Shown here: piece after piece, positions 311-21,512 of the stretch
Numbering within the stretch: position 1 is the first letter of the stretch
Layout: the number at the start of each line of letters is the position of its first letter
NCBI RefSeq assembly: GCF_029783845.1
Contig: NZ_LWID01000001.1
Span: 178,565-202,564 of the forward strand
DNA length: 24,000 nt
Reading direction: 5' to 3'
DNA from: Volucribacter amazonae
GTDB lineage: Bacteria > Pseudomonadota > Gammaproteobacteria > Enterobacterales > Pasteurellaceae
Translations under genes and position numbers: made by a program
The notes under the pieces: model-generated
What the model was told of the DNA's origin: nothing
What the model saw: only the letters and a program-made list of their open reading frames with translations
The model's database searches: none

Positions 311-416
311 TATAGTCGTTTCAATTTAAAATAAGGCAAGGCGGCAAGCCGAAGACAGTACAAGTAGTACGGCGAGGCGTGCCAACGCTGTATTATTTTA
401 AAGTGGAACGACTATA
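311..416. mobile_element. Correia-like MITE, copy 1 (106 bp)
   Basis: TATAGTCGTTTCAATTTAAAATAAG...TTATTTTAAAGTGGAACGACTATA gives ~23-bp terminal inverted repeats ending in TA. The core is AAGGCGGCAAGCCGAAGACAGTACAAGTAGTACGGCGAGGCGTGCCAACGCTGTA. It recurs at 5936, 12046 and 13243. Intergenic, 49 bp upstream of the ackA ATG. Confidence 0.8.
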
Positions 417-464
417 TTTAGAGCGAATTATTTTTTAACCCAATATAAAATATAGGTTATTTAC

Positions 465-1670: not shown

Positions 1671-1682
1671 GTAATCTCAGAT

Positions 1683-1710
1683 AACTGCCGATATTATCGG
1701 CAGTTTTTAT
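1683..1710 (+). terminator. rho-independent-type hairpin between ackA and pta (possible partial terminator)
   Basis: AACTGCCGA-tatta-TCGGCAGTT (9-bp stem) followed by TTTTTATTTT, 13 nt after the ackA stop. Confidence 0.6.
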
Positions 1711-1739
1711 TTTATCTCTAAATAATTAAGGTAAGTATT

Positions 1740-3878: not shown

Positions 3879-3896
3879 TTGATAAATGAATAAATA

Positions 3897-3925
3897 AAAA
3901 GCCCTCATTTTTGAGGGCTTTTTTC
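3897..3925 (+). terminator. rho-independent terminator of ackA-pta
   Basis: AAAAGCCCTCA-tttt-TGAGGGCTTTT followed by a T-run. A USS (AAGTGCGGT, 3943-3951) lies just downstream. Confidence 0.8.
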
Positions 3926-4112
3926 TCTGTGTTATTCCCACCAAGTGCGGTCAGTTTTTAAAATTTTTTCTCTGAACAATCTTGTCCGTTTTAATTTAAT
4001 ATAAGGCATAGCAAAGCCGTCAGATTTTAAGATTTGTTATAAAAATGATAAACTCTGTTATAATGACGTCATATTTTGATGAAAACAACATCTATTCTCA
4101 AACGAGGTATTT

Positions 4113-5807
4113 ATGTCAGCACAACAACTTATTACACAACTTACCGACATTGTTGGTCAACGTTATATTATTACCGATCAAAGTAAAGCCGAAGCCTATT
4201 GCAGTGGCTATCGTTTTGGCTCAGGCAAAGCCTTAGCGGTGGTTCGCCCTGCTACCCTATTAGAATATTGGCAAGTATTACAAGCCTGTGTTAAACACGA
4301 CGTTATCGTGATTAGCCAAGCAGCGAATACGGGGTTGACCGGTGGATCTACGCCTAATGGTAATGATTATGATCGTGATATTGTCTTAATCAATGCCATG
4401 CGAATTGATGGTATTCAATTAATTAATAATGCAGAGCAAGTAGTATGTTTACCTGGCTCAACCTTAAACGAATTAGAGCAACAATTAAAACCCCATGGAC
4501 GAGAACCTCATTCAGTGATCGGTTCATCTTGTATTGGAGCTTCTGTCATTGGTGGCGTTTGCAATAATTCGGGTGGGGCTTTAGTGCAACGTGGACCAGC
4601 CTATACCGAAATGGCATTATTTGCTCAATTAAATGAACAAGGCGAATTAGAACTTAAAAACCATTTAGGTATTGATCTTGGCGAAACCCCAGAAGAAATC
4701 TTATTCAATTTACAACAACATCGTTATCAAAATAAAGATATTCAACAAAATTGCGGTAAAGGTCATGATCATAGTTACTGCGATCATGTTCGCCAAGTTG
4801 ATGAAAACTCCCCTGCTCGTTTTAATGCTGACCCTGCTCGTCATTATGAAGCTTCAGGAAGTGCGGGTAAATTAGCGATTTTTGCCGTTCGCCTAGATAC
4901 CTTTCCATTAGAAAAAAATACTGCAGTATTTTATATTGGCACAAACCAAACTCAGGTATTAAATGATCTCCGCCGTCATATGCTAACTAACTTCCAGCAA
5001 TTACCTATTTCAGGCGAATATATTCACCGAGATGCCTTTGATATCGCCGCTGTTTATGGCAAAGATACCTATTGGATTATCAAAAAATTAGGTACTCAAC
5101 ATCTCCCTAAACTCTTTGCCCTAAAAGCCAAAGTAGATAGGCTAGCGAAAAAATTTACATTCCTACCTAAAAATTTAAGTGATAAAGCATTACAACTGTT
5201 TTCTAAATTATTGCCGCAGCATTTACCCGAGAGTTTACGCCAATATCGTGATCAATATGAACATCATCTTATTATTAAAATGGGTGGTACAGGGGTACAA
5301 GAAGCAAGAGATTACCTCAAGGATTATTTTAAAGACTCTAGCCTAGGTAATTATTTTGAATGTAACCCAGAGCAAAGCCAAGCCGCTATGCTCCATCGTT
5401 TTGCCGTTGCCTCAGCGGCTGTGCGTTATCGAGCAATTCATGATAAAGAGGTTGAGGATATTGTTGCCCTTGATATTGCATTACGCCGTAATGATAATGA
5501 ATGGTTTGAAACCTTACCTACTGAAATTGATAATAAAATTAGCCATAAATTGTACTATGGGCATTTTATGTGTCATGTTTTTCATCAGGATTATATTGTG
5601 AAAAAAGGCAACGACTGTATGCAATTAGAACATGAAATGTGGAAATTATTGGATCAACGTGGAGCACAATATCCTGCTGAACATAATGTTGGGCATTTAT
5701 ATGTAGCAAAACCTGAATTGAAAAATTTCTATCAACAATTAGATCCAACTAACAGTTTCAACCCGGGTATAGGACAAACATCAAAAAATAAATATTGGCA
5801 AGAATAA
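4113..5807 (+). CDS. dld: quinone-dependent D-lactate dehydrogenase
   Basis: 564-aa ORF collinear with E. coli Dld: an N-terminal FAD-binding region (SQAANTGLTGGSTP) and a C-terminal AEHNVGH motif. RBS ACGAGG 7 nt upstream of the ATG. Confidence 0.93.
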   Translation: MSAQQLITQLTDIVGQRYIITDQSKAEAYCSGYRFGSGKALAVVRPATLLEYWQVLQACVKHDVIVISQAANTGLTGGSTPNGNDYDRDIVLINAMRIDGIQLINNAEQVVCLPGSTLNELEQQLKPHGREPHSVIGSSCIGASVIGGVCNNSGGALVQRGPAYTEMALFAQLNEQGELELKNHLGIDLGETPEEILFNLQQHRYQNKDIQQNCGKGHDHSYCDHVRQVDENSPARFNADPARHYEASGSAGKLAIFAVRLDTFPLEKNTAVFYIGTNQTQVLNDLRRHMLTNFQQLPISGEYIHRDAFDIAAVYGKDTYWIIKKLGTQHLPKLFALKAKVDRLAKKFTFLPKNLSDKALQLFSKLLPQHLPESLRQYRDQYEHHLIIKMGGTGVQEARDYLKDYFKDSSLGNYFECNPEQSQAAMLHRFAVASAAVRYRAIHDKEVEDIVALDIALRRNDNEWFETLPTEIDNKISHKLYYGHFMCHVFHQDYIVKKGNDCMQLEHEMWKLLDQRGAQYPAEHNVGHLYVAKPELKNFYQQLDPTNSFNPGIGQTSKNKYWQE

Positions 5808-5814
5808 ATTTAGC

Positions 5815-5835
5815 AAGCCACCTTTAAGGTGGCTT
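5815..5835 (+). terminator. hairpin downstream of dld
   Basis: AAGCCACC-ttta-AGGTGGCTT, 8 nt after the dld stop. The trailing T-run is weak. Confidence 0.4.
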
Positions 5836-5843
5836 AATTCTTC

Positions 5844-5921
5844 TATAATCGTTTAAAAAACAAGCCGAAAAGACAATACAAAGAGTACAGCAAGATATGC
5901 TATTTAAAATGGAAAGACTAT
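5844..5921. mobile_element. Correia-like MITE, internally shortened and degenerate copy (~78 bp)
   Basis: TATAATCGTTTAAAAAACAAGCCGAAAAGACAATACAAAGAGTACAGCAAGATATGCTATTTAAAATGGAAAGACTAT aligns to both ends and part of the core of the 106-bp element, with internal deletions. It lies 14 bp from full copy 2. Confidence 0.55.
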
Positions 5922-5935
5922 TGTTTTTTTAATTG

Positions 5936-6041
5936 TATAGTCGTTTCAATTAAAAATGAGACAAGGCGGTACGCCGAAGACAATACAAGTAGTACGGCGA
6001 GGCGTACCAACGCCGTATCATTTTAAAGTGGAACGACTATA
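5936..6041. mobile_element. Correia-like MITE, copy 2 (106 bp)
   Basis: TATAGTCGTTTCAATTAAAAATGAGACAAGGCGGTACGCCGAAGACAATACAAGTAGTACGGCGAGGCGTACCAACGCCGTATCATTTTAAAGTGGAACGACTATA. Same architecture and orientation as copies 1, 3 and 4. Confidence 0.8.
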
Positions 6042-6083
6042 CATAATCGCCATAACGATCATACTACTAAACTACCACCACGC

Positions 6084-6112
6084 TTGAATTTATCAATATT
6101 CTTACTTATACT
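6084..6112 (+). promoter_or_regulatory. sigma70-type promoter for the small ORF at 6158
   Basis: TTGAAT (6084-6089), 17-nt spacer, TATACT (6107-6112). Lies ~45 nt upstream of the ATG. Confidence 0.45.
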
Positions 6113-6157
6113 GTAAAGCCAGTATTTCACAGCAAATCATTATTCATTGAGGTTAAT

Positions 6158-6250
6158 ATGAAAAAAAATGTAAAACAATCCTTGATCATAGGTGCCATTG
6201 TATTTGTTGTTGCTTTTTTCTATTTTTCACATAAATCTGGCATACTTTGA
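6158..6250 (+). CDS. 30-aa small hydrophobic (single-TM) protein, not in the ORF track
   Basis: Translation is MKKNVKQSLIIGAIVFVVAFFYFSHKSGIL*. GAGG RBS 5 nt upstream of the ATG, near-consensus promoter upstream, hairpin downstream. Positive-N / TM / short-tail layout. Confidence 0.45.
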   Translation: MKKNVKQSLIIGAIVFVVAFFYFSHKSGIL

Positions 6251-6265
6251 TAACAAATATAATAA

Positions 6266-6297
6266 TTAGCCTATAATCATAATAATGACTATAGGCT
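6266..6297. terminator. shared hairpin between the convergent small ORF and tyrA
   Basis: TAGCCTATA-14 nt-TATAGGCTA, a perfect 9-bp stem. U-tracts are weak on both strands. Confidence 0.4.
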
Positions 6298-6331
6298 ATT
6301 TGTCATAATAAAAAATCTAATAAATTAGATA

Positions 6332-7450
6332 TTATCTAAAATCATTTGCCTGCTTTAATAAATTACGGCTTTCTTTCATAAAGAGTTCAGAATAATCGCC
6401 AAACCATTGATGTACTTTTTCAAATGCCTTAATAAAACCTTGTTTATCCCCTTGTTCAAAGAATGTTAAGCTTTCATCATAACTATCACGTAATGATTTA
6501 ATCACCGCTAAATTTTCAGGTTTATCCATAATAATATCCGCATATAAACTGGCATCTTGAGCAAATAAACGTCCAATCATTGCTAATTCCAAACGATAAA
6601 TCGGCGAGGAAAGGGCTAATAATTGGGCTAACTCAACAGGTTGTTGTGAAAGATGCAAACCATTAGCAAAGGTAGCAAAATGACGTAACGCTTGGATATA
6701 AGTCATACTATGATCATGCTCTTTGGCATCAACAGGATAAATAATTGCTCCCCAAATGGCAATTTGATCTATAAGCCATTGATAACGTTCGGCAAATCGC
6801 CCATCACAACGAGCTACTACTTGTTTTACCATACTTGGAATATCAGGTCCAAACATAGGGTGCAACCCCACTACTGCCCCTTGATGTATGCTCAACATTT
6901 TGGCTAAAGGAGCAGATTTTACCGAGGTTAAATCTGTTAATAACATATTTTCCGTTAAGTAAGGCTGCAAACGATCGAGGGTTTCAAGGGTTTTGGCAAT
7001 AGGCACAGACACCACCACCACATCAGCATTAGCTAGAATTTGTTCGGCATTTTGCCAATCTTCTCGCCCTAATAAATCCACTTGATAACCTGATAAGCGG
7101 AAATAATGGGCAAATAATCCACCGAGTTTGCCTCTTCCGCCAACAATCACTATTTTTTGAATAGCTGGATTGAGTTTTTTAAAACCATAATGGTTTTCAT
7201 TAGTATAGGACTCTCGCATAATACGGCGTAGAATATCTTCAATAAGATCAGGTGGCACACCAAGTTTTTCAGCCTCTTGTCGCCTTGCCTTAAGCATATC
7301 CGCTTCACGTTCTGGTACATAAATGGGCAATCCCTGCTGATGCTTGACTTCGCCAACTTTACTCACTAAGGTTAAACGTTTTGCTAATAGTTGTAATAAG
7401 GCTTGATCGGTCTGATCGATTTCATCGCGTAATGCTTTAAGTGCGGTCAT
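6332..7450 (-). CDS. tyrA: bifunctional chorismate mutase / prephenate dehydrogenase (T-protein)
   Basis: 372-aa ORF collinear with E. coli TyrA ([60 protein letters not shown]). Its ATG overlaps the aroF stop (ATGA). Confidence 0.95.
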
Positions 7451-8508
7451 TTTTTATCCTTTTTTGCTAATTTAGAAGCAATATTGCGTAATAAGGTTTC
7501 AGTTGTTTGCCAGTCAATGCAAGCATCAGTAATAGAAACGCCATATTTCATTTGAGTAACAGGTTGCTCAGCACTTTGATTACCTGCATAAAGATGACTT
7601 TCTAACATTAAGCCGATAATTGATTGATTACCATTAACAATTTGTTGTACAGCATCTTCTGCCACAAGAGGCTGGCGGCGATAATCTTTATTGGAATTAC
7701 CATGACTACAATCAATCATAATGGCTTGCTCTAATCCTGCATTAGCTAATTCAATTTCACATTGTGCCACAAATTCCGCTTGATAATTAGGAATTTTTCC
7801 ACCACGCAAAATAACATGCCCATCTGGATTACCTTCTGTATGCAATAAATTCACTTGTCCTTGCTGATTAATGCCAATAAAACTATGCCCCATAGATGCC
7901 GCTTTCATAGCATTAATCGCGGTGGCTAAACTTCCGTCAGTACCGTTTTTAAAACCCACCGCCATAGACAATCCTGAGGCTAATTCACGATGTGTTTGCG
8001 ATTCTGTGGTGCGAGCCCCTATGGCTGACCAGCTAAATAAATCTGCCATATATTGTGGGGTAATGGGATCAAGTGCCTCTGTGGCTAATGGCAAGCCTAA
8101 TTCGGCTAACTCAATTAATAATGCACGAGCAATATGTAAACCATGCTCTACATCAAAAGAACCGTCAATTTTAGGATCATTAATCAACCCTTTCCAGCCC
8201 ACTGTGGTACGAGGTTTCTCAAAGTAAACTCGCATTACAATGTAAAGATTATCTGACAATTCAGTGGCAAGTTGAGCCAATTTTTTACCATATTCAATGG
8301 CAGCTTGAGGATCGTGAATAGAACAAGGCCCAACCACCACTAATAACTTATCCTGTTGTTTATGAATAATCTTAGCAATATCTTGACGTGATTGCTGAAT
8401 TTGTTGGCGTAGCTCTGGGGATAATGGCAATTTTTGCTTGAGTTCATAAGGGGTTACTAAAACTTTTTCATCAATAATATGTACATTATGCAAGCTATCT
8501 TTATTCAT
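7447..8508 (-). CDS. aroF: 3-deoxy-7-phosphoheptulonate (DAHP) synthase, class I, AroF-like
   Basis: 353-aa ORF. The N-terminus [20 protein letters not shown] resembles E. coli AroF (MQKDALNNVHITDEQVLMTP) more than AroG. Contains [19 protein letters not shown], and forms an operon with tyrA as in E. coli aroF-tyrA. Confidence 0.92.
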
Positions 8509-8538
8509 TTTTCACTCCATTAATACCGTTGTTCTTGT

Positions 8539-8579
8539 TGTAAAATAATAATTACACTAAATGTAATAAATATAATACA
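8539..8579 (-). promoter_or_regulatory. two candidate TyrR boxes upstream of aroF-tyrA
   Basis: Box 1 is TGTAAAataataATTACA (8539-8556), matching 11 of 12 positions of TGTAAA-N6-TTTACA. Box 2 is TGTAATaaatatAATACA (8562-8579) and is weaker. They lie 31-73 bp upstream of the aroF ATG. Confidence 0.4.
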
Positions 8580-8599
8580 TTATAATTTAAAAAAGGCAA
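8572..8599 (-). promoter_or_regulatory. candidate sigma70 promoter of aroF-tyrA
   Basis: Minus strand: TTGCCT (8599-8594), 16-nt spacer, TATTAT (8577-8572). The -10 lies inside candidate TyrR box 2. Confidence 0.35.
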
Positions 8600-8661
8600 T
8601 GGGGAATAACTATACTATAAAATGAATAAAGAATATTTTAGAAAATTGCACCGCACTTAAT

Positions 8662-8689
8662 AAAAAACCTGCCAATTAGCAGGTTTTTT
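8662..8689. terminator. bidirectional rho-independent terminator downstream of the NhaC-family gene
   Basis: AAAAAACCTGC-caatta-GCAGGTTTTTT, with A/T runs on both sides. Lies 10 nt beyond the stop of the minus-strand transporter gene. A USS is adjacent at 8650-8658. Confidence 0.7.
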
Positions 8690-8698
8690 ATCGTTACA

Positions 8699-10231
8699 TT
8701 AAATTTGTTTCTTTCTACAAAGTAGAATAAGAATAGTAAAAACTATGGCTGTGGCAATAAAAGCATATAACATTGAAGAAGTAAAACCAATCACCAAATA
8801 GCCTACCACAGTAGATAGCGCCACTAACATAGCATAAGGTAATTGTGTAGTAACATGATCCATTAAACCACATTTTGCCCCAGTAGAAGAAAGAATGGTG
8901 GTATCCGAAATAGGCGAACAATGATCGCCACAAACCGCCCCTGCCATTACCGCAGATAAACAAGGGAGCAATAATTCAGGCGCTGCATTCGCCGCAATAG
9001 CTGCCGCTATCGGCAACATAATCCCAAAGGTTCCCCAACTTGTTCCTGTGGCAAATGCCATTGCGGTAGCAAGTACAAACAATAAGGCCGGCAATAATTC
9101 TATGGCAAAATTGCCTGAAACAAGGGTGGATAAATATTCCCCTGTTTTCATATCCCCTACTACATTATTAATTGTCCAAGCAAAAAATAAAATTAAAATT
9201 GCCCCTGACATTGATTTCATACCTAAAACCCAAGCACGAAAATAAGTGGCAATATCAACATGGCGTCCTGCTATAATACAAAGGGTTAATACAACTAAAG
9301 CACTTACCCCACCAAATACTAAAGAAATCCCAACAGTGGTATTTTCAAACGCACCTAGCACACTAAAAGGTTTTCCTTCTGCACTAAGAACTTGGTTACC
9401 TGTATAGAGCATCATAAAAACCGTCGCAACAATTAAGGTAACAATAGGAAACACTAAATTACGCATTCTCCCTGTTACCATAATCTCTTCATTGTCATCA
9501 TTATTTTTCGCTAATGCTGCTTGCTCATGCCTTGCCATTGAACCTATATCAATGGAAAAATATGCTACTAAGAAAACCATAATAATGGAAAAAATAGCGT
9601 AATAGTTCATCACACTCATCGCCATAAATGCGCCTATCGGAGAATATTCGGTAATAGAATAAGTGGCTAATAATCCTGCGATTAGGGTAATAATATAAGC
9701 TCCCCAACTAGATACAGGCATTAATACACACATTGGTGCGGCGGTTGAATCCAAAATATAAGCAAGTTTAGCACGAGATACCTTAAATTTATCAGTAACA
9801 GGACGAGCAATAGCGCCAACCGCTAAACTATGGAAATAATCATCAATAAAGGTAACAAATACTAATGATGCAGCCATTAATTTTGCCCCTCGCCGTCCTT
9901 TTATGCGTTTTTTTGCCCAATTTGCAAAGGCTTGATTACTGCCTGATACAGTAAAAAGTGCGGTCAATATTCCCAATAATAATAGAAAAATTAAAATATT
10001 AATATTATCGGCGTTTAATCCCTGTGCCTCTACATCATAAACTAAGGATAAAATATTCTCTTTAAGATAAATTAAAGAAGTAAGCAAATGACCACCGCCG
10101 AGCATTAACGCCCCAACCAGAATACCAATACTTAATGAAAAAATAACTTTACGTGTAACAATCGCCAAACTCAGTGCCAATAACGGCGGAATAATTGACC
10201 ATATTGACGTAGAATAATTAATAAGTTGCAT
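8699..10231 (-). CDS. NhaC-family (Na+/H+ antiporter superfamily) transporter, probably lysine-regulated
   Basis: 510-aa polytopic membrane protein with NhaC-family-like composition and length. It is preceded by a lysine riboswitch on the same strand. Confidence 0.85.
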   Translation of the reverse strand: MQLINYSTSIWSIIPPLLALSLAIVTRKVIFSLSIGILVGALMLGGGHLLTSLIYLKENILSLVYDVEAQGLNADNINILIFLLLLGILTALFTVSGSNQAFANWAKKRIKGRRGAKLMAASLVFVTFIDDYFHSLAVGAIARPVTDKFKVSRAKLAYILDSTAAPMCVLMPVSSWGAYIITLIAGLLATYSITEYSPIGAFMAMSVMNYYAIFSIIMVFLVAYFSIDIGSMARHEQAALAKNNDDNEEIMVTGRMRNLVFPIVTLIVATVFMMLYTGNQVLSAEGKPFSVLGAFENTTVGISLVFGGVSALVVLTLCIIAGRHVDIATYFRAWVLGMKSMSGAILILFFAWTINNVVGDMKTGEYLSTLVSGNFAIELLPALLFVLATAMAFATGTSWGTFGIMLPIAAAIAANAAPELLLPCLSAVMAGAVCGDHCSPISDTTILSSTGAKCGLMDHVTTQLPYAMLVALSTVVGYLVIGFTSSMLYAFIATAIVFTILILLCRKKQI

Positions 10232-10320
10232 GACCTCTACCTAAATATAAAAAATAAGGGAGATCTACTGAATGAAATAATCAAATTGATTATAACAGGT
10301 CGGTTAATTGAACCACCTAA

Positions 10321-10486
10321 CAGTAGCGCTCCATAGTGAACATAAACATACTATGGCAGTGACGTACCTTTCAATAACGCCCCCAACCAATCAAAATGAC
10401 TTTTGATTGATTTCGGCAAATATTCCTTTCTTTTTTCCTCATTGCTATCCGCTCAGAAAAAATACTTATAACATTTGCGCCTCTAC
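10321..10486 (-). promoter_or_regulatory. lysine riboswitch (L-box / LYS element) aptamer in the 5' leader of the NhaC-family transporter
   Basis: Minus-strand RNA, in order: GUAGAGGCGC; AAGUA; AGAAAGG; GCCGAAAU; hairpin CAAUCAAAA-GUCA-UUUUGAUUG; GUUGGGG; stem GGCGU...ACGUC; ACUG; stem CCAUAGU...ACUAUGG; AGCGCUACUG. The 5' GUAG/GCGC pairs with the 3' GCGC/CUAC to form P1. The order of conserved blocks (AGAGGCGC, GCCGAA, UGGGG, GUCAC, GGAGCGC) matches the L-box consensus. Confidence 0.8.
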
Positions 10487-10738
10487 ATATGCGGAAGTGC
10501 TAAGATTACGATAATCTTCATCAAATGACAATAGAAATTATTGATTAATCTGATATGCTAAATATTCATTGTTCCTCCTATTATAAAAAGACAACTTTTC
10601 ATTATTCCATTTAATTTAGATCTAATTAGTTAAGCAATATAAGATAAATTAATCCTAAATAAGCATATTTTTATTGCCTATTATAATTATTATAATTATA
10701 ATTGCTTAGCGTAATGAATAAATCATAGGAGGAATTTT

Positions 10739-11137
10739 ATGTCTGACGTATTAAAAACACTTACTAATATTCGTAGCTTACGAGCTTTAGCCCGTGAACT
10801 TTCTTTAGAAGAATTAAAATCTATTTTAGAAAAATTAACTTTAGTGGTAAAAGAAAAACATCAAGAAGCCGCTGAATTACAAGCCAAAGAACAACAACGC
10901 TTAGAAAAATTAGAAAAATATAAAGAATTATTACAGCAAGATGGTATTAATGCTGAAGATTTGATTGAATTATTAGGTGGCGAAACACCTAAACGTAAAA
11001 AAAGAGAACCAAAACCAGCTAAATACCAATACGAAGAAAATGGCATTGTCAAAACTTGGACTGGTCAAGGAAGAATGCCTAGAGTCATCAAACAAGCCGT
11101 AGATGCTGGAAAATCCTTATCTTCTTTTGAAATTTAA
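10739..11137 (+). CDS. hns: DNA-binding nucleoid protein H-NS
   Basis: 132-aa ORF with an N-terminal coiled-coil (NIRSLRALARELSLEEL) and the C-terminal DNA-binding motif TWTGQGRMP. Strong RBS AGGAGG. Very AT-rich upstream region. Confidence 0.93.
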   Translation: MSDVLKTLTNIRSLRALARELSLEELKSILEKLTLVVKEKHQEAAELQAKEQQRLEKLEKYKELLQQDGINAEDLIELLGGETPKRKKREPKPAKYQYEENGIVKTWTGQGRMPRVIKQAVDAGKSLSSFEI

Positions 11138-11157
11138 TCCATAAAATCTTTGACAAT

Positions 11158-11190
11158 AAAACCCATAATATATGGGTTTTATTGTTTTTA
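11158..11190 (+). terminator. rho-independent terminator of hns
   Basis: AAAACCCATA-ata-TATGGGTTTT followed by ATTGTTTTTATT. Confidence 0.75.
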
Positions 11191-11207
11191 TTCGGAAAAA
11201 TAACATT

Positions 11208-12044
11208 ATGATTGAAAATAAAATTTTATTAACTGATTGCCCAGATGATAAAGGTTTAATCGCCAAAATAACCAATATTTGTTATAAACATCAATTAAAT
11301 ATTCTACATAATAACGAATTTGTTGATTTTGAAACCAAACACTTTTTTATGCGTACCCAATTACAAGGTATTTTTAACGAACAAACCTTATTAGAAGATC
11401 TTAATCTTGCTCTCCCACAAGGTACAAATTGCCGACTAATTAGTAAACAAAAGAAACGCATTGTAATTTTAGTTACCAAAGAAGCTCATTGCCTTGGCGA
11501 TATATTAATGAAAAATTATTATGGTAGCTTAAATGTTGAAATTGCTGCGGTCATTGGTAATCACGATACATTAAGATCATTAGTAGAAAAATTTGATATT
11601 CCATTCTTCTGCATTAGTCATCAAAATCTCACACGTGTTGAACACGACAAATTATTAGCTGATAAAATTGATGAATATTCGCCTGATTATATTGTATTGG
11701 CTAAATATATGCGTGTGCTTAATCCTGAGTTTGTAAGCCGTTACCCTAATCGTGTCATTAATATTCATCATTCTTTCTTACCTGCCTTTATTGGTGCTAA
11801 ACCTTATCATCAGGCTTATGAAAGAGGAGTAAAAATTATTGGGGCAACAGCACATTTTATTAATAACGAATTAGATCAAGGCCCAATTATTTTGCAAAAT
11901 GTCATCAATGTTGATCATACCTATAATGCAGAAGCTATGATGAAAGCGGGCAGAGATGTAGAAAAAACCGTCTTAAGTAAAGCATTAGATCTTGCCTTAC
12001 AAGATAGAATTTTTGTTTTCCAAAATAAAACCATTGTTTTTTAA
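11208..12044 (+). CDS. purU: formyltetrahydrofolate deformylase
   Basis: Collinear with E. coli PurU (CPDDKGLIAKITNICYKH, IVILVTKEAHCLGD, NIHHSFLPAFIGAKPYHQAYERGVKIIGATAHF). The start is moved to MIENK (11208), because the track start at 11172 lies inside the hns terminator hairpin. Confidence 0.93.
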   Translation: MIENKILLTDCPDDKGLIAKITNICYKHQLNILHNNEFVDFETKHFFMRTQLQGIFNEQTLLEDLNLALPQGTNCRLISKQKKRIVILVTKEAHCLGDILMKNYYGSLNVEIAAVIGNHDTLRSLVEKFDIPFFCISHQNLTRVEHDKLLADKIDEYSPDYIVLAKYMRVLNPEFVSRYPNRVINIHHSFLPAFIGAKPYHQAYERGVKIIGATAHFINNELDQGPIILQNVINVDHTYNAEAMMKAGRDVEKTVLSKALDLALQDRIFVFQNKTIVF

Positions 12045-12045
12045 T

Positions 12046-12151
12046 TATAGTCGTTTCAATTTAAAATAAGACAAGACGGTACGCCGAAGACAGTACAAAA
12101 AGTACAATAAGGCGTACCAACACCGTATTATTTTAAAGTAGGACGATTATA
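12046..12151. mobile_element. Correia-like MITE, copy 3 (106 bp)
   Basis: TATAGTCGTTTCAATTTAAAATAAGACAAGACGGTACGCCGAAGACAGTACAAAAAGTACAATAAGGCGTACCAACACCGTATTATTTTAAAGTAGGACGATTATA. It begins 1 nt after the purU stop codon. Confidence 0.8.
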
Positions 12152-12226
12152 ATAAATCCAGTCTAATCTACTGGCTTAAATACTGCTGAAATTTAATGCA
12201 ATTAAATAACTTACTTCATTTTTTTC

Positions 12227-12254
12227 TTGCAATCATCACTTACCACTGTATAAT
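12227..12254 (+). promoter_or_regulatory. sigma70 promoter of the tRNA-Leu gene
   Basis: TTGCAA (12227-12232), 16-nt spacer, TATAAT (12249-12254). The tRNA 5' end lies 15 nt downstream. Confidence 0.5.
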
Positions 12255-12268
12255 CACTGCCATTAATT

Positions 12269-12354
12269 GCCTGGGTGGCGAAATTGGTAGACGCAGCGGA
12301 TTCAAAATCCGCCGTTGAATAAACGTGTCGGTTCGAGTCCGACCCTAGGCACCA
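12269..12354 (+). tRNA. tRNA-Leu (anticodon CAA)
   Basis: GCCTGGG acceptor stem pairs with CCTAGGC, followed by ACCA. Anticodon stem GCGGA/TCCGC has loop TTCAAAA, giving CAA. Long variable arm (class II). T-arm is GGTTCGAGTCC. Confidence 0.93.
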
Positions 12355-12557
12355 TTTATAATAAAATTATCCTTTCATAATCCTCTAAAAGCAAAAGTCT
12401 TTTTTACACATTTGAAATGTTTAATATCTCGATAAATTATAATCGTAAAATAAAAATTTATTTCATATAAATAAAAGCAAAAAAACACACCGCACTTTTG
12501 TATAAGGTAAAACCAATTATAGTAAACTAATACTATTTTTTAATTCTATTCACTCCT

Positions 12558-12899
12558 CTACTCTATCAACCTTTGCTGACAGAGAGCAATAAAAAATTCA
12601 ATATCTTCTGAGTCATAACCCAAAATTTTACCAATTTCTCGTTCTCGCTCGGGATCAAATCCCGATATTCCTATTAAAGAGGAAAGATGTTCGGCTTGTT
12701 GACGATATTCTTCCTTAAATACGATGGTATAAAAACCATTAGGCGGGCAATAATATTTCTCAATAGTAGAAAAATAACGACTTTCAATATAAGTCAACAT
12801 TTCATCAGGAATAATGCCATCAAAAAACAGCGCTACTTGTTTTTTGCCTTGTAACATTAATTGTAATTCAATACCCTCGTGAGGACCGATTTTTGCCAT
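12558..12899 (-). CDS. hypothetical protein (113 aa), family not recognised
   Basis: Clean ORF with RBS AAGGAA 6 nt upstream of the ATG. Soluble-looking sequence (MAKIGPHEGIELQLMLQGKK...). No motif that I can place. Confidence 0.6.
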   Translation of the reverse strand: MAKIGPHEGIELQLMLQGKKQVALFFDGIIPDEMLTYIESRYFSTIEKYYCPPNGFYTIVFKEEYRQQAEHLSSLIGISGFDPEREREIGKILGYDSEDIEFFIALCQQRLIE

Positions 12900-12945
12900 A
12901 TTATTTCCTTAAATCAACCTGTAGAGCCATTATCTTTAAAATAGT

Positions 12946-12970
12946 AAAAATCCCTCTTATTAAGAGGGAT
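12946..12970 (-). terminator. rho-independent terminator of yeeE-yeeD
   Basis: ATCCCTCTT-att-AAGAGGGAT. On the minus strand it is followed by a U-run (plus-strand AAAAA at 12946-12950). Lies 26 nt after the yeeD stop. Confidence 0.6.
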
Positions 12971-12995
12971 AATCATCAATAATAATATGTTGTTA

Positions 12996-13220
12996 TTATG
13001 CCTTTTTTATTACAATCTCCCAAGTAGCATCACCAATTTGAGCAAAATGAATAACAGGATAATCATTTTCGGCAGCCCAACGAGGTAAATTTTCAGTAGC
13101 TTCTGCACAAGTAAATTGTATCGCTAATTCATCGCCAATTTGTAACTCAACAATTTTTTTCTTAGCTTGCATTAATGGGTAAGGGCATAAATGCCCTTTG
13201 GTATCTAATTCATAACGCAT
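12996..13220 (-). CDS. yeeD: TusA/SirA-family sulfurtransferase-like protein YeeD
   Basis: 74-aa ORF with the CPxP motif (GHLCPYPLMQAKK). Similar over its full length to E. coli YeeD (GDEL.I.F.C..ATE..P.WAAE, QIGDA.W.I...KA). Downstream of yeeE. RBS GAGGAG. Confidence 0.85.
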   Translation of the reverse strand: MRYELDTKGHLCPYPLMQAKKKIVELQIGDELAIQFTCAEATENLPRWAAENDYPVIHFAQIGDATWEIVIKKA

Positions 13221-13242
13221 AATTTTCTCCTCTTGGTTATGA

Positions 13243-13346
13243 TACAGTCGTTTAATTTAAAATAAGACGGCGATACACTGAAATACAGTACAAATCGTAC
13301 AACAAGACATACCAACGCCATATTAATTTAAAATGGGGCAACTATA
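13243..13346. mobile_element. Correia-like MITE, copy 4 (104 bp, most diverged)
   Basis: TACAGTCGTTTAATTTAAAATAAGACGGCGATACACTGAAATACAGTACAAATCGTACAACAAGACATACCAACGCCATATTAATTTAAAATGGGGCAACTATA. It fills the yeeE-yeeD intergenic gap. Its terminal CTATA contains the yeeE stop codon. Confidence 0.7.
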
Positions 13347-14373
13347 ACTTTTGTGGGCGGACATAAACAAAATAGCTCATTGCCCAAACACCTAACATAA
13401 TAAAAAATAAAGAAATCCAGCCTTTACTACTCATTACCGCCGTTGCTGTTAAACCGTTGCCAATGGTACAGCCGCCAGCGAGAGACGCACCAATGCCCAT
13501 AAATAAGCCGCCAATTACACTATTTCTTACAGTAGCCAAATCTGGTAAACGCCATTTAAACTCACTACTCCCTTTAGCGGCAAGGTATGATCCTATTAGA
13601 ATACCAAGTACTAAAAATACGCCCCAATTTATACGAGAAGTATCGCCTGTTATTAAAAAAGTAATAATATTGGCAGAAGGACCTGTAATACCTAATCCTG
13701 CACTTTTACCTACCACAGCATTTGATAGCCAAGCTAACAATGCCAAAATTCCAATAAATATTGCTGCCCAAAATGGATGAATATGCTTTTCAAATAAAAA
13801 ATGGCGAATACCTTGATATTTTGCAGGTAAACTAGCTATTTTTAACTTAGGTTTACGCAATGTTGTATAAACCCCAAAAGCAGTAATAATGGCTAAAATA
13901 GCAACAAGCCACCAAACAGAAATTTGTAAACTTTGTGCAAGATTATCATTCATTCGCCAATATTGTCCCATAAATTTTTGCATATCATTTAATGCACCAT
14001 AACGCATCATTGCCGCACTTAACATATACATAAAGAGTGCAATCCAACTACTTATCAAGCCTTCGCCCGCGTGATACCAAGTCCCTGTAGCACAACCACT
14101 AGCAAGCACAATACTTACACCAAAGATCAATGAGCCAATAATGGTAGAAAACAGTGAAAAATCTTTATATGGAGAAGTGATATAGCCAATTTCAATTAAC
14201 CATAGTACGCCAATACTTTGTAGCAAAATGGCAATTAAAAATGCATAAAATATACGATTATTTTTACTGAGATACATTTCCCGAAAGCCGCCTGTCAAAC
14301 AAAAACGAGAACGCTGGAAAATAAAACCGAGAAGACTGCCAATCAATAATGGCGAGAAGATTGTTGAAAACAT
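13342..14373 (-). CDS. yeeE: YeeE/YedE-family inner-membrane (thiosulfate-uptake type) protein
   Basis: 343-aa polytopic ORF with repeated Cys-containing motifs (SRFCLTGG, ASGCATG, AGGCTIGNG) typical of YeeE/YedE. Paired with yeeD. Confidence 0.88.
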   Translation of the reverse strand: MFSTIFSPLLIGSLLGFIFQRSRFCLTGGFREMYLSKNNRIFYAFLIAILLQSIGVLWLIEIGYITSPYKDFSLFSTIIGSLIFGVSIVLASGCATGTWYHAGEGLISSWIALFMYMLSAAMMRYGALNDMQKFMGQYWRMNDNLAQSLQISVWWLVAILAIITAFGVYTTLRKPKLKIASLPAKYQGIRHFLFEKHIHPFWAAIFIGILALLAWLSNAVVGKSAGLGITGPSANIITFLITGDTSRINWGVFLVLGILIGSYLAAKGSSEFKWRLPDLATVRNSVIGGLFMGIGASLAGGCTIGNGLTATAVMSSKGWISLFFIMLGVWAMSYFVYVRPQKL

Positions 14374-14608
14374 AACTAAACCTTAGTATAAATGTTAAAC
14401 AGATCATTCATTCTAAAAATCTTATTGATAAAGACAAGCTGAAAGATCCAAAAATATGATCTCGCTCATAAAAAATTTGAATAAATGCCTGTCATTATAT
14501 ATTAAAAGCTTAAGTTATTCCCCACACTAACTTCATCTAATGTAATTTTCTGCAAAACTTTGCTTTGACTATTTCTTTTGCAAAGCAGAATCTTTAAAAT
14601 ACGCCACC

Positions 14609-17954: not shown

Positions 17955-19346
17955 ATGAAATTAAATAAAATCGCCCTTGCTTTAGCCCTTTCTACCGCGC
18001 TGGTAGGCTGTGCAAATTTAGACGATTCCTTCAATGCCACTGAACAAAATTTCCAACAATATGAGGCTATTAGCAAACAATATGAAGTTAATGAAAACTG
18101 GTGGAGTTTATACCAAGATCCACAATTAGATCGCCTCGTGAATCTTGCCCTAGAAAACAATAAAGATCTGGCTAAAGCTGCTATTAGCGTTAATACCGCA
18201 TTATATAATGCCAACTTATTAGGGGCTGATTTAGTACCAACCTTTAGTGGCTCAGTCAGTTCATCTGCACAAAAAAATATTAATACAGGCGGTGCATCAA
18301 CCATTAGTCATGGTGGTTCATTATCCGTTAGCTATACCCTAGATTTATGGCGACGTTTAGCTGATGCTGCCAATGCTGCTGAATGGACACACGCCGCTAC
18401 CGTAGAAGATCTGGCGGCAACTCGCTTATCATTAATTAATAGTGTAATTACTAGCTACTATCAAATTGCTTACCTAAAAGATGCCATTAAGGTTACCGAG
18501 CAAACCATTAAATATTACAGCCAAATCAATGACGTAATGCAAAATAAATGGCGACAAGGGGTAGCGGATCGTGCGAGTAGCGATCAAGCACAACAATCCG
18601 TTCTCACCGCTCGCAATACCCTAATCAGCTATCAAACTCAATTAAAAACTGCTGAGCAAACTTTGCGTAACCTATTGAATTTAAAACCAAATGAACCGCT
18701 TAATGTGGTTTATCCTGAAATCCTTAATGTCAAATTAGCAGGGGTAAACCTTAATGTACCTGTCTCCGCAATCGCTAACCGCCCTGACGTAAAAGGTTAT
18801 GAATACCGTTTACGCAGTGCCTTTAAAGATGCCAAAGCCACCCAAAAAAGCTGGTTCCCAAGCATTACCCTTGGTGGCTCACTCAGCTACAGTGGCAATA
18901 AAGTGGACAATGCTTTCAATACACCTATCGCAGGGGGAACCGTATCCATTAGCTTACCATTCTTAAGCTGGAATACGGTAAAATGGAATGTGAAAATTTC
19001 AGAAGCGGCTTATGAAACGGCAAAAGTCAACTTTGAACAATCCATTACCACCGCATTAAATGAAATTGACACCAATTATTATAGTTACAGTCAAGCCTTG
19101 CAAAATTTTGCTAACTTACAGAAAAAATATGATTACGACAAACGTATCAGCCAATACTATAAAAACCGCTATGATGCAGGTGTATCAGAATTAAGCGATT
19201 GGTTAAGTGCCATTAACACCGAAAAAGCCTCAGAGTTATCAATACTTAATGCCAAATATAGCCTAATTCAAGATGAAAATGCCGTATATAGTGCAATGGG
19301 TGGCTATTATTCGCCTTATCAATTAGCTACGCCGATTAATAACTAA
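17955..19346 (+). CDS. efflux outer-membrane factor lipoprotein (NodT/TolC family)
   Basis: 463-aa ORF with a lipoprotein signal peptide and lipobox (ALALALSTALVGC). Two OEP-type repeat halves. Third gene of the macAB cluster. Confidence 0.88.
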   Translation: MKLNKIALALALSTALVGCANLDDSFNATEQNFQQYEAISKQYEVNENWWSLYQDPQLDRLVNLALENNKDLAKAAISVNTALYNANLLGADLVPTFSGSVSSSAQKNINTGGASTISHGGSLSVSYTLDLWRRLADAANAAEWTHAATVEDLAATRLSLINSVITSYYQIAYLKDAIKVTEQTIKYYSQINDVMQNKWRQGVADRASSDQAQQSVLTARNTLISYQTQLKTAEQTLRNLLNLKPNEPLNVVYPEILNVKLAGVNLNVPVSAIANRPDVKGYEYRLRSAFKDAKATQKSWFPSITLGGSLSYSGNKVDNAFNTPIAGGTVSISLPFLSWNTVKWNVKISEAAYETAKVNFEQSITTALNEIDTNYYSYSQALQNFANLQKKYDYDKRISQYYKNRYDAGVSELSDWLSAINTEKASELSILNAKYSLIQDENAVYSAMGGYYSPYQLATPINN

Positions 19347-19376
19347 TTGATTTATCAAAGATAATCTACTCTAATA

Positions 19377-19416
19377 ATTGCCCCAATAGTTAGAAAAAAC
19401 TGACTAAGGGGCAAAT
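19377..19416 (+). terminator. weak hairpin after the outer-membrane factor gene
   Basis: ATTGCCCC-23 nt-GGGGCAAAT followed by TTCTT. The large loop makes this low confidence. Confidence 0.25.
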
Positions 19417-19493
19417 TTCTTATAACTCAATATATCTAGCAACTTAATCTTCTCTCTTTCTAAAAATAAATAAAAATTTTATGATAGTCTTTA

Positions 19494-19583
19494 ATGCTTT
19501 TTAATGAAAATGCTAAAATTGTGGAATTTTATAAATTATATAGTGATGTTAAAGTTATAGGTACAGTTCCAATTAAGGAGTAA
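19494..19583 (+). other. 29-codon coding remnant / mini-ORF A (toxin C-terminal-tail-like), coupled to the downstream gene
   Basis: Translation is MLFNENAKIVEFYKLYSDVKVIGTVPIKE*. It is paralogous to 20468-20557. Stops at 19482-19487 close the frame upstream. Its last codons contain the AAGGAG RBS of the next gene. Confidence 0.35.
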
Positions 19584-19587
19584 ATTA

Positions 19588-20411
19588 ATGAGTGAATTTG
19601 AAATGAAAAAGCGGGCTATATTTTTAAAAGAGAATCATATGCAAGATTACAAAACTTATTTAATTAAAAATAAGAAAAAAGATGTATTTTCAATAATTGC
19701 CCCTGATTATATAAAAGAGGATCCTGATGATCCGAATAGATTAAATTCTTATTACCGTTCATTAAGTTGGCGTCAAATAAATAGTCAAATGGAGCTTTGT
19801 CAGTTACTCTATTCTGCGGGTGAAAATAAAGATATTGTTATTAGTGAAACTCGTCAAATGTTACAGCGTTTTCATCGTCATTTTGATATTGATTTTCCAA
19901 AACGAAAATTATATTTGTCTTCGCCAGACAGTTATGCTTATATTTTATGGTTACTAGGGTTAGCCGTTTTAGTCAATGATCAAGAAACCTTAATGCGTAT
20001 TCCACAATGGCTTGGCGGTAGTGATGAAAATGACTCTTTATACCTTATGTCGATCCGCCAATGAAAACCTTACTTGATTTTTTAGGTTATCAAGGGGCTT
20101 TAGCCGTGGCTGATAAGCCTTTTTTTCCAAAATCCTGTTATCGTTATTTTCCTGAATTAGTACAAAGCAAAATTGATTCTGAACGTGAAAGGTTATTAAT
20201 CCAATACTTAAAAGATTGGTATAAAAGTAATAAAGACACTTATTGGTATAATTACCATAAAGATTGTGAAGAATTCTTTTTTGGTTATTGGTCATTTGAA
20301 GCAGGGGCATTGGCGTTGCTATTAAATATTGATATAGAACGTTCAGGTATCGCAGAAAAACCTTTCTTTCCAGCAGATTATGTTCGTTGGGCGAGAGAGA
20401 TTAGGGGGTAA
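19588..20411 (+). pseudogene. frameshifted paralog (copy A) of the 277-aa gene at 20561; split into 158-aa and 116-aa ORFs
   Basis: Collinear with 20561-21394 apart from a 2-bp insertion at 20040-20041 (CTTTATACC versus CTTTACC in copy B). The 5' ORF stops at TGA 20062-20064. That stop overlaps the ATG of the 3' ORF at 20061 (ATGA). Confidence 0.7.
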
Positions 20412-20461
20412 TATTATTAGAGGGAGCTTGGCTTTCTCTTTTTGTTATACGGCGATGGAAA

Positions 20462-20557
20462 ATGGCTATGATCGTTGATGAAAATGGTAAAGTAGTTGAA
20501 ATTTATAAATTATCAAGCGAAGCAAAAGTTATAGGTACAGTTCCAATTAAGGAGTAA
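20462..20557 (+). other. 31-codon coding remnant / mini-ORF B (toxin C-terminal-tail-like), coupled to the downstream gene
   Basis: Translation is MAMIVDENGKVVEIYKLSSEAKVIGTVPIKE*. The open frame extends back to the TAG at 20402-20404. Its last codons contain the AAGGAG RBS of the next gene. Confidence 0.35.
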
Positions 20558-20560
20558 TTA

Positions 20561-21394
20561 ATGAATGAGTTTGAAGCCAAAAAACGAGCTATATTTTTAA
20601 AAAATAATTATATGCGAGAATATAAAGATTATTTTATAGAAAATAAACAGAAAGATATATTTACTATTGAGGCTCCTGATTATATAAAAAATGACCCTAA
20701 TGATCCGAATAGTTTGAACTCCTATTATCGTAGATTAAGTTGGAACCAAACTAGTAATCAATTAGAGTTTTGTCAATTGTTATATTCAGCAGGAGAAAGT
20801 AAAGAGATCGTTATTAGTGAAACTTGTCAAATGTTACAACGTTTTCATCGTCATTTTGATATTGATTTTCCAAAACGAAAATTATATTTGTCTTCGCCAG
20901 ACAGTTATGCTTATATTTTATGGCTATTAGGGCTAGCCGTTTTAGTCAATGATCAAGAAACCTTAATGCGTATTCCACAATGGCTTGGCGGTAGTGATGA
21001 AAATGACTCTTTACCTTATGTCGATCCGCCAATGAAAGCCTTACTTGATTTTTTAGGTTATCAAGGAGCTTTGGCAGTGGCAGATAAGCCTTTTTTTCCA
21101 AAAGCCTGTTATCGTTATTTTCCTGAATTAGTACAAAGCAAAATTGATTCTGAATGTGAAAAGCTATTAATCCAATATTTAAAAGATTGGTATAAAAGTA
21201 ATAAAAACACTTATTGGTATGATAGACATAAGCGAAATGATGGAAAATTCTTTTTCGGTTATTGGTCATTTGAGGCGGGGGCATTGGTGTTGCTATTAAA
21301 TATTGATATAGAACGTTCAGGTATTGCAGAAAAACCTTTCTTTCCAGCAGATTATGTTTGTTGGGCGAGAGAGATTAGGGCTAAGGATTCATAG
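20561..21394 (+). CDS. 277-aa two-domain protein (copy B, intact); candidate polymorphic-toxin immunity protein, possibly PoNi-like (DUF1910/DUF1911)
   Basis: Intact ORF with strong RBS AAGGAG. Soluble. The C-terminal motifs FFFGYWSFEAGAL and PFFPADYV recall DUF1911-type immunity proteins, from memory and unverified. The tandem paralog and the upstream toxin-tail-like remnant support an immunity-type context. Confidence 0.75.
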   Translation: MNEFEAKKRAIFLKNNYMREYKDYFIENKQKDIFTIEAPDYIKNDPNDPNSLNSYYRRLSWNQTSNQLEFCQLLYSAGESKEIVISETCQMLQRFHRHFDIDFPKRKLYLSSPDSYAYILWLLGLAVLVNDQETLMRIPQWLGGSDENDSLPYVDPPMKALLDFLGYQGALAVADKPFFPKACYRYFPELVQSKIDSECEKLLIQYLKDWYKSNKNTYWYDRHKRNDGKFFFGYWSFEAGALVLLLNIDIERSGIAEKPFFPADYVCWAREIRAKDS

Positions 21395-21512
21395 CCCCAA
21401 GTTCCTTTGAGGTAATATAGCCATTCTACGAAAGGAATACTTCGTTCGTACACCTTATCTTTCAATTTAAAATGGCGATAAACTAAAAGTGCGGTGCATT
21501 TTAGAAAAACTT

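Follow-up and report, generated by a model that had tools for sequence, protein, structure and literature searches.

A Tandem PoNi Immunity Array, Probably Orphan, between an Efflux Operon and lptG in Volucribacter amazonae

Introduction

Orphan immunity genes and islets of type VI secretion systems (T6SS), such as the arrays of Vibrio cholerae, the islet of Salmonella Typhi and the Rhs orphans of Serratia, have no cognate effector, are thought to shield their bearers from attack by non-kin and often come with 3′ fragments of effector genes. Orphans of the contact-dependent growth inhibition (CDI) and Rhs systems usually retain the whole toxic C-terminal (CT) domain and immediately follow the main locus on its downstream side; as Poole and colleagues reportedly described in 2011, the CDI (cdiA-CT/cdiI) and Rhs orphan modules are tandem, diverged units, each made of a toxin 3′ fragment and an immunity gene. 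Here we analyze a tandem pair of immunity genes of the PoNi family in Volucribacter amazonae, a parrot-associated member of the Pasteurellaceae. The window, by which we mean the whole stretch of 24,000 nucleotides (nt) that was analyzed (contig NZ_LWID01000001.1, positions 178,565 to 202,564), holds the pair between the macA-macB-OMF efflux operon and lptG, and we read it with fairly high confidence as an orphan immunity array against DNase toxins of the PoNe family.

PoNi proteins (DUF1911/DUF1910) bind and specifically neutralize the PoNe DNase domain that is encoded directly upstream; a DUF1911 immunity gene follows 89.8% of 1546 PoNe genes, and the possibility that some PoNi genes are orphans was raised by the same authors (Jana 2019, PMC6688995). 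Binding and neutralization of the adjacent PoNe DNase by its PoNi has also been reported elsewhere (JBC 2026, PMC13377157). Arrays of orphan immunity genes against T6SS effectors form the acquired interbacterial defense (AID) islands of Bacteroidales, which reside on mobile elements with recombinases (PMC10470768).

The array in the window has the same two Pfam domains as the PoNi of the PoNe/PoNi pair of Vibrio parahaemolyticus 12-297/B (V12_14465/V12_14460; Protein Data Bank [PDB]: 9vy2, 9waq), and its toxin tail can be aligned with the final ~27 residues of the Vibrio toxin. It differs from that pair in being ~30% identical, in having no full-length toxin, VgrG, Hcp or PAAR gene nearby, in being a tandem duplicate with one broken copy and in being flanked by an efflux operon and lptG in a member of the Pasteurellaceae. 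In comparison with the orphan T6SS immunity islets, the immunity family is a different one and the array is detached, within 24 kb, from any T6SS or auxiliary cluster. Unlike the CDI and Rhs orphan modules, it keeps a noncatalytic toxin tail of only 29 codons. It would resemble the AID islands in being an array of immunity genes against effectors, but it showed no link to an integrase, a transposase or a plasmid.

Results

Two Tandem Units Carry PoNi Genes

The array consists of two direct-repeat units, A and B, whose parts are as follows (window coordinates, strand).

19479-19583, plus strand: toxin-tail remnant A; a mini open reading frame (mini-ORF) at 19494-19583 encodes MLFNENAKIVEFYKLYSDVKVIGTVPIKE followed by a stop
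19575-19580, plus strand: AAGGAG ribosome-binding site of PoNi A, within the final codons of remnant A (stop TAA at 19581-19583, ATG at 19588)
19588-20411, plus strand: PoNi copy A, disrupted by a TA duplication at 20040-20043 into two ORFs that overlap as ATGA
20456-20557, plus strand: toxin-tail remnant B; a mini-ORF at 20468 (or 20462)-20557 encodes M(AM)IVDENGKVVEIYKLSSEAKVIGTVPIKE followed by a stop
20549-20554, plus strand: AAGGAG ribosome-binding site of PoNi B, within the final codons of remnant B (stop TAA at 20555-20557, ATG at 20561)
20561-21394, plus strand: PoNi copy B, intact, 277 aa (PoNi_N plus PoNi_C), characterized by Pfam, PDB match, AlphaFold2, Foldseek and a dN/dS of 0.26 against copy A

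A first-pass annotation of the window had proposed two direct-repeat cassettes of ~974 bp, and this description holds: the units are spaced 971 to 974 bp from start to start, at a repeat period of 973 to 974 bp, and are on average 86% identical in a pairwise alignment. Repeat blocks of 300, 225, 140 and 90 nt are 79%, 92%, 94% and 83% identical, respectively, far above chance; by segment, identity ranges from 79 to 100%, as in tandem, diverged units. Tandem Repeats Finder did not report the repeat because the longest period that it handles is 500. Homology extends from ~19479/19494 to 20406 in unit A and from ~20456/20468 to 21380 in unit B, so that the units originally placed at 19455-20411 and 20430-21394 are confirmed with slightly narrower edges; the ~55-nt spacer that separates them is unique sequence and carries a terminator-like hairpin. 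Reading of the sequence likewise agrees with the earlier account in that each unit has a remnant ending ...KVIGTVPIKE before its stop (A, 19494-19583; B, 20468-20557), with stops that close the remnant frames upstream (19482-19487 in A; 20402-20404 in B) and with AAGGAG in the last remnant codons, 4 nt (A) or 3 nt (B) then separating the remnant stop from the ATG of the PoNi gene. The gene of ~277 codons that had been assigned to each unit is present in unit B (20561-21394, 277 aa); in unit A it is split.

Copy B matches both PoNi_C (PF08929, formerly DUF1911; E = 1.4e-19, 71.3 bits, cut-off 25) and PoNi_N (PF08928, formerly DUF1910; E = 3.9e-11, 43.5 bits, cut-off 22.4), which are the domains that the first pass had suggested for it. 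Residues 47 through 271 align with the crystallized PoNi of V. parahaemolyticus, VP14460 (PDB: 9vy2_A, 9waq_A; E = 1.1e-26), for which the immunity function has been demonstrated by experiment (PMC6688995, PMC13377157). The AlphaFold2 model (pLDDT 86.3, pTM 0.86) has the all-helical DUF1910/1911 fold, and the sole significant match to it in a Foldseek search of the PDB is 2FEF (PA2201; prob 1.0, TM 0.57, E = 5.6e-4), a DUF1911 reference structure; the Foldseek library is apparently older than 9vy2 and 9waq. We therefore assign the 277-aa gene as a PoNi immunity protein. It is predicted to bind and neutralize a PoNe DNase, as five of the eight contact residues that can be mapped are identical to those of VP14460. 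The subfamily is small, with 3 representative clusters at E ≤ 1e-30 versus 667 in the whole family. Scans of PoNi B and the tail against NCBIfam and PADLOC gave no match, so PoNi B is not a catalogued phage-defense protein; the cassette had no match in Rfam. A 1457-aa protein of the representative library, P0334, contains 16 separate stretches that match residues 218 through 276 of PoNi B and would seem to be PoNi_C-like and highly repetitive.

The lesion in copy A is a 2-bp TA duplication (20040-20043; TTTATACC versus TTTACC), which leaves one ORF at 19588-20064 (158 aa; PoNi_N, E = 2.1e-12) and another at 20061-20411 (116 aa; PoNi_C, E = 2.6e-21). Deleting 2 bp gives back a full protein of 273 aa, and the duplication is thus the only disabling lesion; a 3-bp indel near codon 228 is a further difference between the copies. 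Copy A was probably functional until recently and is now broken by this duplication. Phase variation was considered as the origin of the frameshift and rejected, TATA being only a two-unit repeat.

The Remnants Match the C Terminus of PoNe Effectors

Genes that end in the tail do occur, namely that of a 440-aa VgrG-linked effector of Neisseria sp. 74A18, which ends ...WLMIVGPEGEVVEIYKLDKNAKVIDKVKK before its stop, and that of VP14465 of Vibrio, whose nuclease domain ends ...WLMIVDDSGKVINITKLDEHAKALEKV. The Neisseria effector carries the whole PoNe motif Kx3GE...GIDx2Y...Yx3ExK (as KGLYGE, GIDGIY and YVVTETK), and its residues 288 through 438 match the solved PoNe nuclease domain VP14465C (E = 3.9e-46). 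Remnant B (frame 20468-20557, translated as MIVDENGKVVEIYKLSSEAKVIGTVPIKE) is identical to the C terminus of this effector at 16 of 25 positions (BLASTP, E = 1e-6); in tblastn, remnant A is matched by the Neisseria effector tail (E = 1e-3) and by tail B (E = 5e-11). A 105-aa truncated gene in front of the PoNi of Actinobacillus porcinus bridges the window tail and the effector, matching the latter at E = 1e-26 and ending ...WLMIVDDNGKVVEIYQIASSGKDAKVIGTINIGDYQ. Traces of further toxin codons lie upstream of both mini-ORFs, as degenerate, out-of-frame L-M-I-V codons in unit A (TTATGATAGTC) and as a vestige of K-W-L codons in unit B (AAATGGCT). The short upstream frames are accordingly assigned as the C-terminal tail of a PoNe DNase effector gene, comprising its last ~29 codons.

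The fold of the Vibrio PoNe is α1-β1-β2-β3-α2-α3-β4-β5, with the catalytic motif in the β core and the PoNi-binding site at α2/α3 (residues 394 through 416; PMC13377157). The window remnants match only β4-β5 and the extreme C terminus of the toxin and can, as such, neither cut DNA nor bind PoNi. In the alignment they cover only the region past the PoNe motif, which is absent from them; toxic remnants were rejected on this ground. In each unit an immunity gene is tightly coupled to a truncated toxin 3′ end that has neither a delivery nor a catalytic part. No significant selection emerged for the tail mini-ORF (9 of 15 changes nonsynonymous, P = 0.063), and 40% of simulated tails are still open after 15 random substitutions.

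Some Relatives of the Array Are Linked to Toxins

A scan of genome contigs with the PoNi profile returned five loci. Neisseria sp. 74A18 (LGZA01000011.1) has a VgrG gene, the effector, a PoNi gene, a 27-codon tail and a second PoNi gene, the PoNi being 48% identical to that of the window. Marinomonas sp. THO17 (AP031575.1) has an Hcp gene, two VgrG genes, an effector and a PoNi gene, then five units of a 68- to 135-aa fragment and PoNi, giving six PoNi copies. The order within the units of both loci is that of the window: truncated toxin 3′ end, tight junction, PoNi and terminator hairpin. The Neisseria locus is also of the same subfamily, its tail starts at the same M-I-V codons and its copies differ in the same α9-α10 patch. 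In both arrays an intact effector adjoining vgrG comes first, and the homologs there follow full-length effectors, whereas the window, with only the last ~29 toxin-gene codons before each copy, holds the orphan part only.

An effector is followed by two PoNi genes in a Neisseria metagenome-assembled genome (MAG), and a contig resembling A. porcinus (L013) has a tail and PoNi, then a 34-codon tail and PoNi as a tandem pair; in A. porcinus the orphan unit is toxin-less, and upstream of the PoNi module lies a VgrG-like fragment. In Kingella denitrificans a single, toxin-less tail and PoNi stand between an FAD oxidoreductase gene and a MiaB-like gene, with no nuclease domain within 10 kb. The nearest homolog of PoNi B, P0002 (61% identical), has a 5′ frameshift, in which MSEFELKNEIFS and a stop precede a new start of the called ORF at position 93 (L012 1-120); its tail is also degenerate (...KLIRCYKTKE before the stop), with AAGGAG. 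A profile search with the toxin C terminus matched 91 proteins, all of them short fragments (≤272 aa); Marinomonas genomes contributed several each, and Gallibacterium and Ursidibacter also supplied pieces. The search returned no full-length toxin and also missed the known 440-aa Neisseria effector, although part of that protein, its C-terminal domain, had been the leading query, so that a full-length toxin is not excluded by it.

The profile match, the toxins that bear the tail and the toxin-linked arrays in other genomes support the earlier proposal of orphan toxin-tail/immunity modules, and the window appears to be an orphan-only version of a common array.

Each PoNi copy of Neisseria sp. 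74A18 is followed by inverted DNA uptake sequences (GCCGTCTGAA...TTCAGACGGC) that form a terminator hairpin (L003 4243-4270 and 5296-5333), and the right edge of the duplication falls within the uptake-sequence hairpin. The Neisseria MAG contains a second, distantly related PoNe-like/PoNi-like pair (L007 3643-5095) ~4 kb upstream of the effector and its two PoNi genes.

The Two Copies Diverge at Predicted Toxin-Contact Segments

Nei-Gojobori estimates comparing repaired copy A with copy B give an overall dN/dS (nonsynonymous to synonymous substitution rates) of 0.26, with a mosaic distribution: dS is 0.95 and dN 0.17 in codons 1 through 95, dS is 0.14 and dN 0.014 in codons 96 through 215, dS is 0.57 and dN 0.22 in codons 216 through 240 (18 nt differences fall in codons 221 through 240) and dS is 0.09 from codon 241 to the end. 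The two divergent segments in copy B are these.

20561-20845, plus strand: divergent N-terminal segment, codons 1 through 95, which covers the equivalents of VP14460 helices α2 and α3 that contact the toxin
21206-21280, plus strand: divergent patch, codons 216 through 240, equivalent to the α9-α10 toxin-contact loop

The patch is the least confident internal stretch of the AlphaFold2 model. High dS in both segments indicates old divergence, not a burst of positive selection, and the near-identity of the remaining sequence points to gene conversion. In the homogenized core, 4 of 13 changes are nonsynonymous (P = 1.7e-4 against the neutral expectation); this synonymous bias argues for purifying selection after the last homogenization and for a recent date of the copy A frameshift. 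A random 277-codon frame at the base composition of the window would be open with P = 5e-11, the stop probability being 8% per random codon.

Published contact positions of VP14460 were mapped onto the window proteins, and eight could be placed. W55, D107 and S108 are kept in A and B alike; copy B also keeps R52 and R215. The equivalents of K45, R52, D209 and R215 differ between A and B (residue pairs S/R, R/S, N/D and R/Y), such that 4 of the 8 contact positions differ compared with 26 of 225 positions overall (hypergeometric P = 0.007). The PoNi pair of Neisseria sp. 74A18 has 22 differences in 882 nt, of which 18 are in nt 696 through 747, the α9-α10 loop (Y237R, I239K, V240K, L245N); the first 695 nt are identical. 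In the Volucribacter and the Neisseria pair alike, the R215 equivalent is Tyr in one copy and Arg in the other. Because A and B differ in two toxin-contacting segments, they probably recognize, or recognized, different PoNe variants, as far as eight positions can tell.

PoNi Stood at the lptG Junction before Two Volucribacter Lineages Split

Comparison of the efflux/lptG junction with that of Volucribacter psittacicida, whose LptG is 98% identical (87% in Conservatibacter flavescens), places the array in one species and its remains in the other. In blastn against the V. psittacicida contig (L004), homology covers macA-macB-OMF at 87% identity up to 19324 and starts again at 21323, within the final 72 nt of PoNi B, continuing through lptG-lptF at 92.6%.

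19325-21322, no strand: segment absent from V. psittacicida (blastn), where ~860 bp with a lipoprotein-like gene stand instead

The 3′ end of PoNi A (20349-20404) matches the same V. psittacicida segment. There the junction reads ...AGCAGAAAAATCTTTCTTTCCAGCAGATTATGTTCGTTGGGCGAGAGAAATTAGAGCTAAGGATTATAG, encoding AEKSFFPADYVRWAREIRAKDY and a stop, which is a scar of the PoNi 3′ end beside lptG that retains ~22 final codons. A scar at the same lptG junction implies that PoNi was there prior to the divergence of the two lineages and that most of it has been replaced since then in V. psittacicida; the locus thus appears both ancestral and decaying. The replacement gene (L004 11281-11986, minus strand) is itself split by a frameshift into a 38-aa ORF with a signal peptide and lipobox (LLLTGC) and a 206-aa body in another frame; the YidX_N label that it bears in a precomputed table was not reproduced with a local copy of Pfam. 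In Conservatibacter the gene after lptG is tehB, and lptG has no efflux operon beside it.

Annotation of the genes in the window found no toxin, secretion-system or mobility gene, which accords with the first-pass reading; no vgrG, hcp or PAAR gene adjoins the array within the 24 kb, and the window has no integrase, transposase or recombinase. Upstream of the array there is no full-length toxin-immunity locus in the 24 kb, macA-macB-OMF being there instead. In a plasmid search the only match, from Ralstonia, is 25% identical, and there is thus no close plasmid relative. The G+C content of the cassette is 28 to 36%, versus mostly 34 to 42% in the flanking genes.

Synteny with V. psittacicida breaks upstream of macA (window 1-14527 versus L004), where the window has ackA-pta-dld-tyrA-...-purU and a sulfur transporter gene and V. 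psittacicida has an aminotransferase gene, purK, purE and pepN.

Expression Signals and the Tail Boundary

Two predicted hairpins bear on how the units might be transcribed.

19378-19414, plus strand: strong hairpin past the OMF stop (19346); dG −19.3 kcal/mol, z = −5.2, with 0 of 200 shuffles as stable
20419-20449, plus strand: intrinsic-terminator-like hairpin with a T-tract, between the units; 9-bp stem with 4 GC pairs, tail TTTTTGTTATA, dG −12.9 kcal/mol, z = −2.3

The first probably marks the end of the macA-macB-OMF transcript and the left edge of the array; its U-tract is weak (AAAUUUCUUAU), and read-through is possible. With hairpins after both the OMF gene and PoNi A, unit B would need a promoter within ~20450-20560, that is, in or near its tail. 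The best promoter candidates match at 8 of 12 positions and are common to both units, with a −10 box (TATGAT) formed from the Met-Ile codons at the left edge of the tail.

An alignment of the 150 nt of DNA upstream of eight PoNi genes was used to compare the tail boundaries. In unit B of the window, Neisseria sp. 74A18 and L013, the point at which homology to full-length toxin genes starts is no more than ~10 nt from one shared set of codons, ATGAT(A/C)GT (M-I-V); unit A has vestiges of these codons, out of frame, 13 nt upstream of its ATG, and the Kingella remnant begins at about the same place without an ATG. Units A and B of the window, Neisseria sp. 74A18 and L013 each have an intact mini-ORF of 27 to 34 codons, which lies directly behind the terminator of the preceding unit and ends 3 to 12 nt before the PoNi start or overlaps it. 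This shared boundary may stem from a common ancestor of the orphan units, from a hot spot of recombination or from erosion that stopped at a minimal expression module. Tentatively, and against what we think the likelier course, the tail might be a retained functional part, serving as a promoter, a translational-coupling leader or both; tail, PoNi and terminator would then form an autonomous cassette that duplicates and moves between naturally competent Pasteurellaceae and Neisseriaceae. On such a model each tandem pair would provide two specificities, since the toxin-contact segments escape gene conversion.

Discussion

An orphan immunity array against PoNe toxins would have arisen if each unit stems from an effector-immunity operon whose 3′ end was displaced or duplicated. 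Such a unit would keep the ~29 last codons of the PoNe effector gene (encoding its final β-hairpin, which should be nontoxic and unable to bind PoNi), the Shine-Dalgarno sequence embedded in them and the PoNi gene. PoNi acts in the cytoplasm, binding α2/α3 of an incoming PoNe nuclease domain and so blocking the DNase; in the relatives examined, PoNe proteins are delivered as VgrG-linked T6SS effectors. Copy B, being intact, would most likely protect this Volucribacter strain from the PoNe effectors of neighboring bacteria. Gene conversion would keep the structural core alike in A and B while the toxin-contact segments differ. Expression of the copies, their protective effect and their difference in specificity are what we infer from these comparisons.

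Several observations weigh against this proposal. Copy A is broken, the array has been lost from V. psittacicida and the nearest homolog, P0002, is frameshifted at its 5′ end, so the locus may be in the course of being lost, with no selection acting on it at present. Unit B sits 3′ of the terminator-like hairpin at 20419-20449, a promoter search of both tails gave no site with at least 9 of 12 matches, and matches of 8 of 12 are expected by chance in such AT-rich DNA. The dN/dS values record past selection and are no proof of present function, and the contact mapping is drawn from a 30%-identical Vibrio structure at only eight positions.

Taken further, the same observations would make the array a decaying relic of an ancestral effector-immunity locus with no present function, in which B is intact only through too little time; we regard this as unlikely. 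Besides the frameshifts in copy A and in the nearest homolog, it would account for the last ~22 codons being all that V. psittacicida has left at the same site, for the lack of a promoter above chance and for the lack of a toxin or secretion gene in the window. It has to contend with the changes since homogenization, which are mostly synonymous (4 of 13 nonsynonymous), with a copy A that has a single lesion and with a copy B that has a consensus Shine-Dalgarno sequence and shares 5 of 8 contact residues with the Vibrio protein; moreover, at the stop probability given above, a 277-codon frame decays fast.

The array would not be orphan at all if a full-length PoNe effector (delivered by a T6SS, CDI or other system) were encoded elsewhere in the genome, with the array as its cognate or spare immunity and as a guard against attack by siblings; this seems to us quite improbable. 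A full-length toxin could have been overlooked by the toxin search, which gave fragments only and missed the 440-aa Neisseria effector, and among the Pasteurellaceae A. porcinus does have a VgrG-like fragment upstream of its PoNi module. An unlinked cognate would nevertheless be unusual, because 89.8% of PoNe genes directly precede their immunity gene (Jana 2019, PMC6688995); the same profile search, with its known miss of a full-length effector, gave no Volucribacter match; and the tails in the window are truncated copies, the mark of displaced modules rather than of an active pair. That these are PoNi-like genes with a nonimmunity function unrelated to toxins can practically be set aside, since we found no evidence in its favor, every unit bears a toxin-gene tail, the Neisseria and Marinomonas loci examined are linked to toxins and the gene is absent from V. 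psittacicida.

Read as an orphan immunity array, the locus would be a clear and well-bounded case of orphan anti-T6SS (PoNe) immunity in Volucribacter, a genus for which we found no description of interbacterial-competition genes in the literature. It suggests PoNe-armed competitors as a selective force in the parrot airway niche. Tandem PoNi pairs in two families, represented by Volucribacter and Neisseria, are homogenized except at the toxin contacts known from the crystal structure, and this offers a testable map of specificity comprising the α9-α10 loop and the N-terminal helices. In practical terms little is at stake, since orphan immunity arrays are already an established concept.

Other Features of the Window

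Next to the array and its flanking macA-macB-OMF, lptG and lptF genes, the window contains ackA, pta, dld, tyrA and genes for a DAHP synthase and an antiporter, then hns, purU and a sulfur transporter gene. The core of the uptake signal (Hin-type), AAGTGCGGT, occurs 10 times in the 24 kb, where 0.14 copies are expected; examples are 17901-17909/17917-17925 and 21487-21495. Two of the cores form an inverted pair in the interval from macB to the OMF gene, another lies between PoNi B and lptG, and none of the 10 falls inside the variable segment 19325-21322.

An intergenic repeat of ~106 to 110 nt is present in three copies (311-416, 5936-6041 and 12046-12151) that are 85 to 92% identical. It has 29-nt terminal inverted repeats (5934-5962/6015-6043) and resembles a miniature inverted-repeat transposable element (MITE) or a palindromic intergenic element; it has no matching family in Rfam, and parts of it are present in V. 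psittacicida (L004 13513-13545 and 2616-2725). One copy adjoins a tRNA-Leu gene (CAA; 12269-12354, plus strand), near which lies a 113-aa ORF without a Pfam match (12558-12899, minus strand). A lysine riboswitch (Rfam RF00168, 139.8 bits) at 10316-10493 on the minus strand stands upstream of the Na+/H+ antiporter-family gene at 8699-10231.

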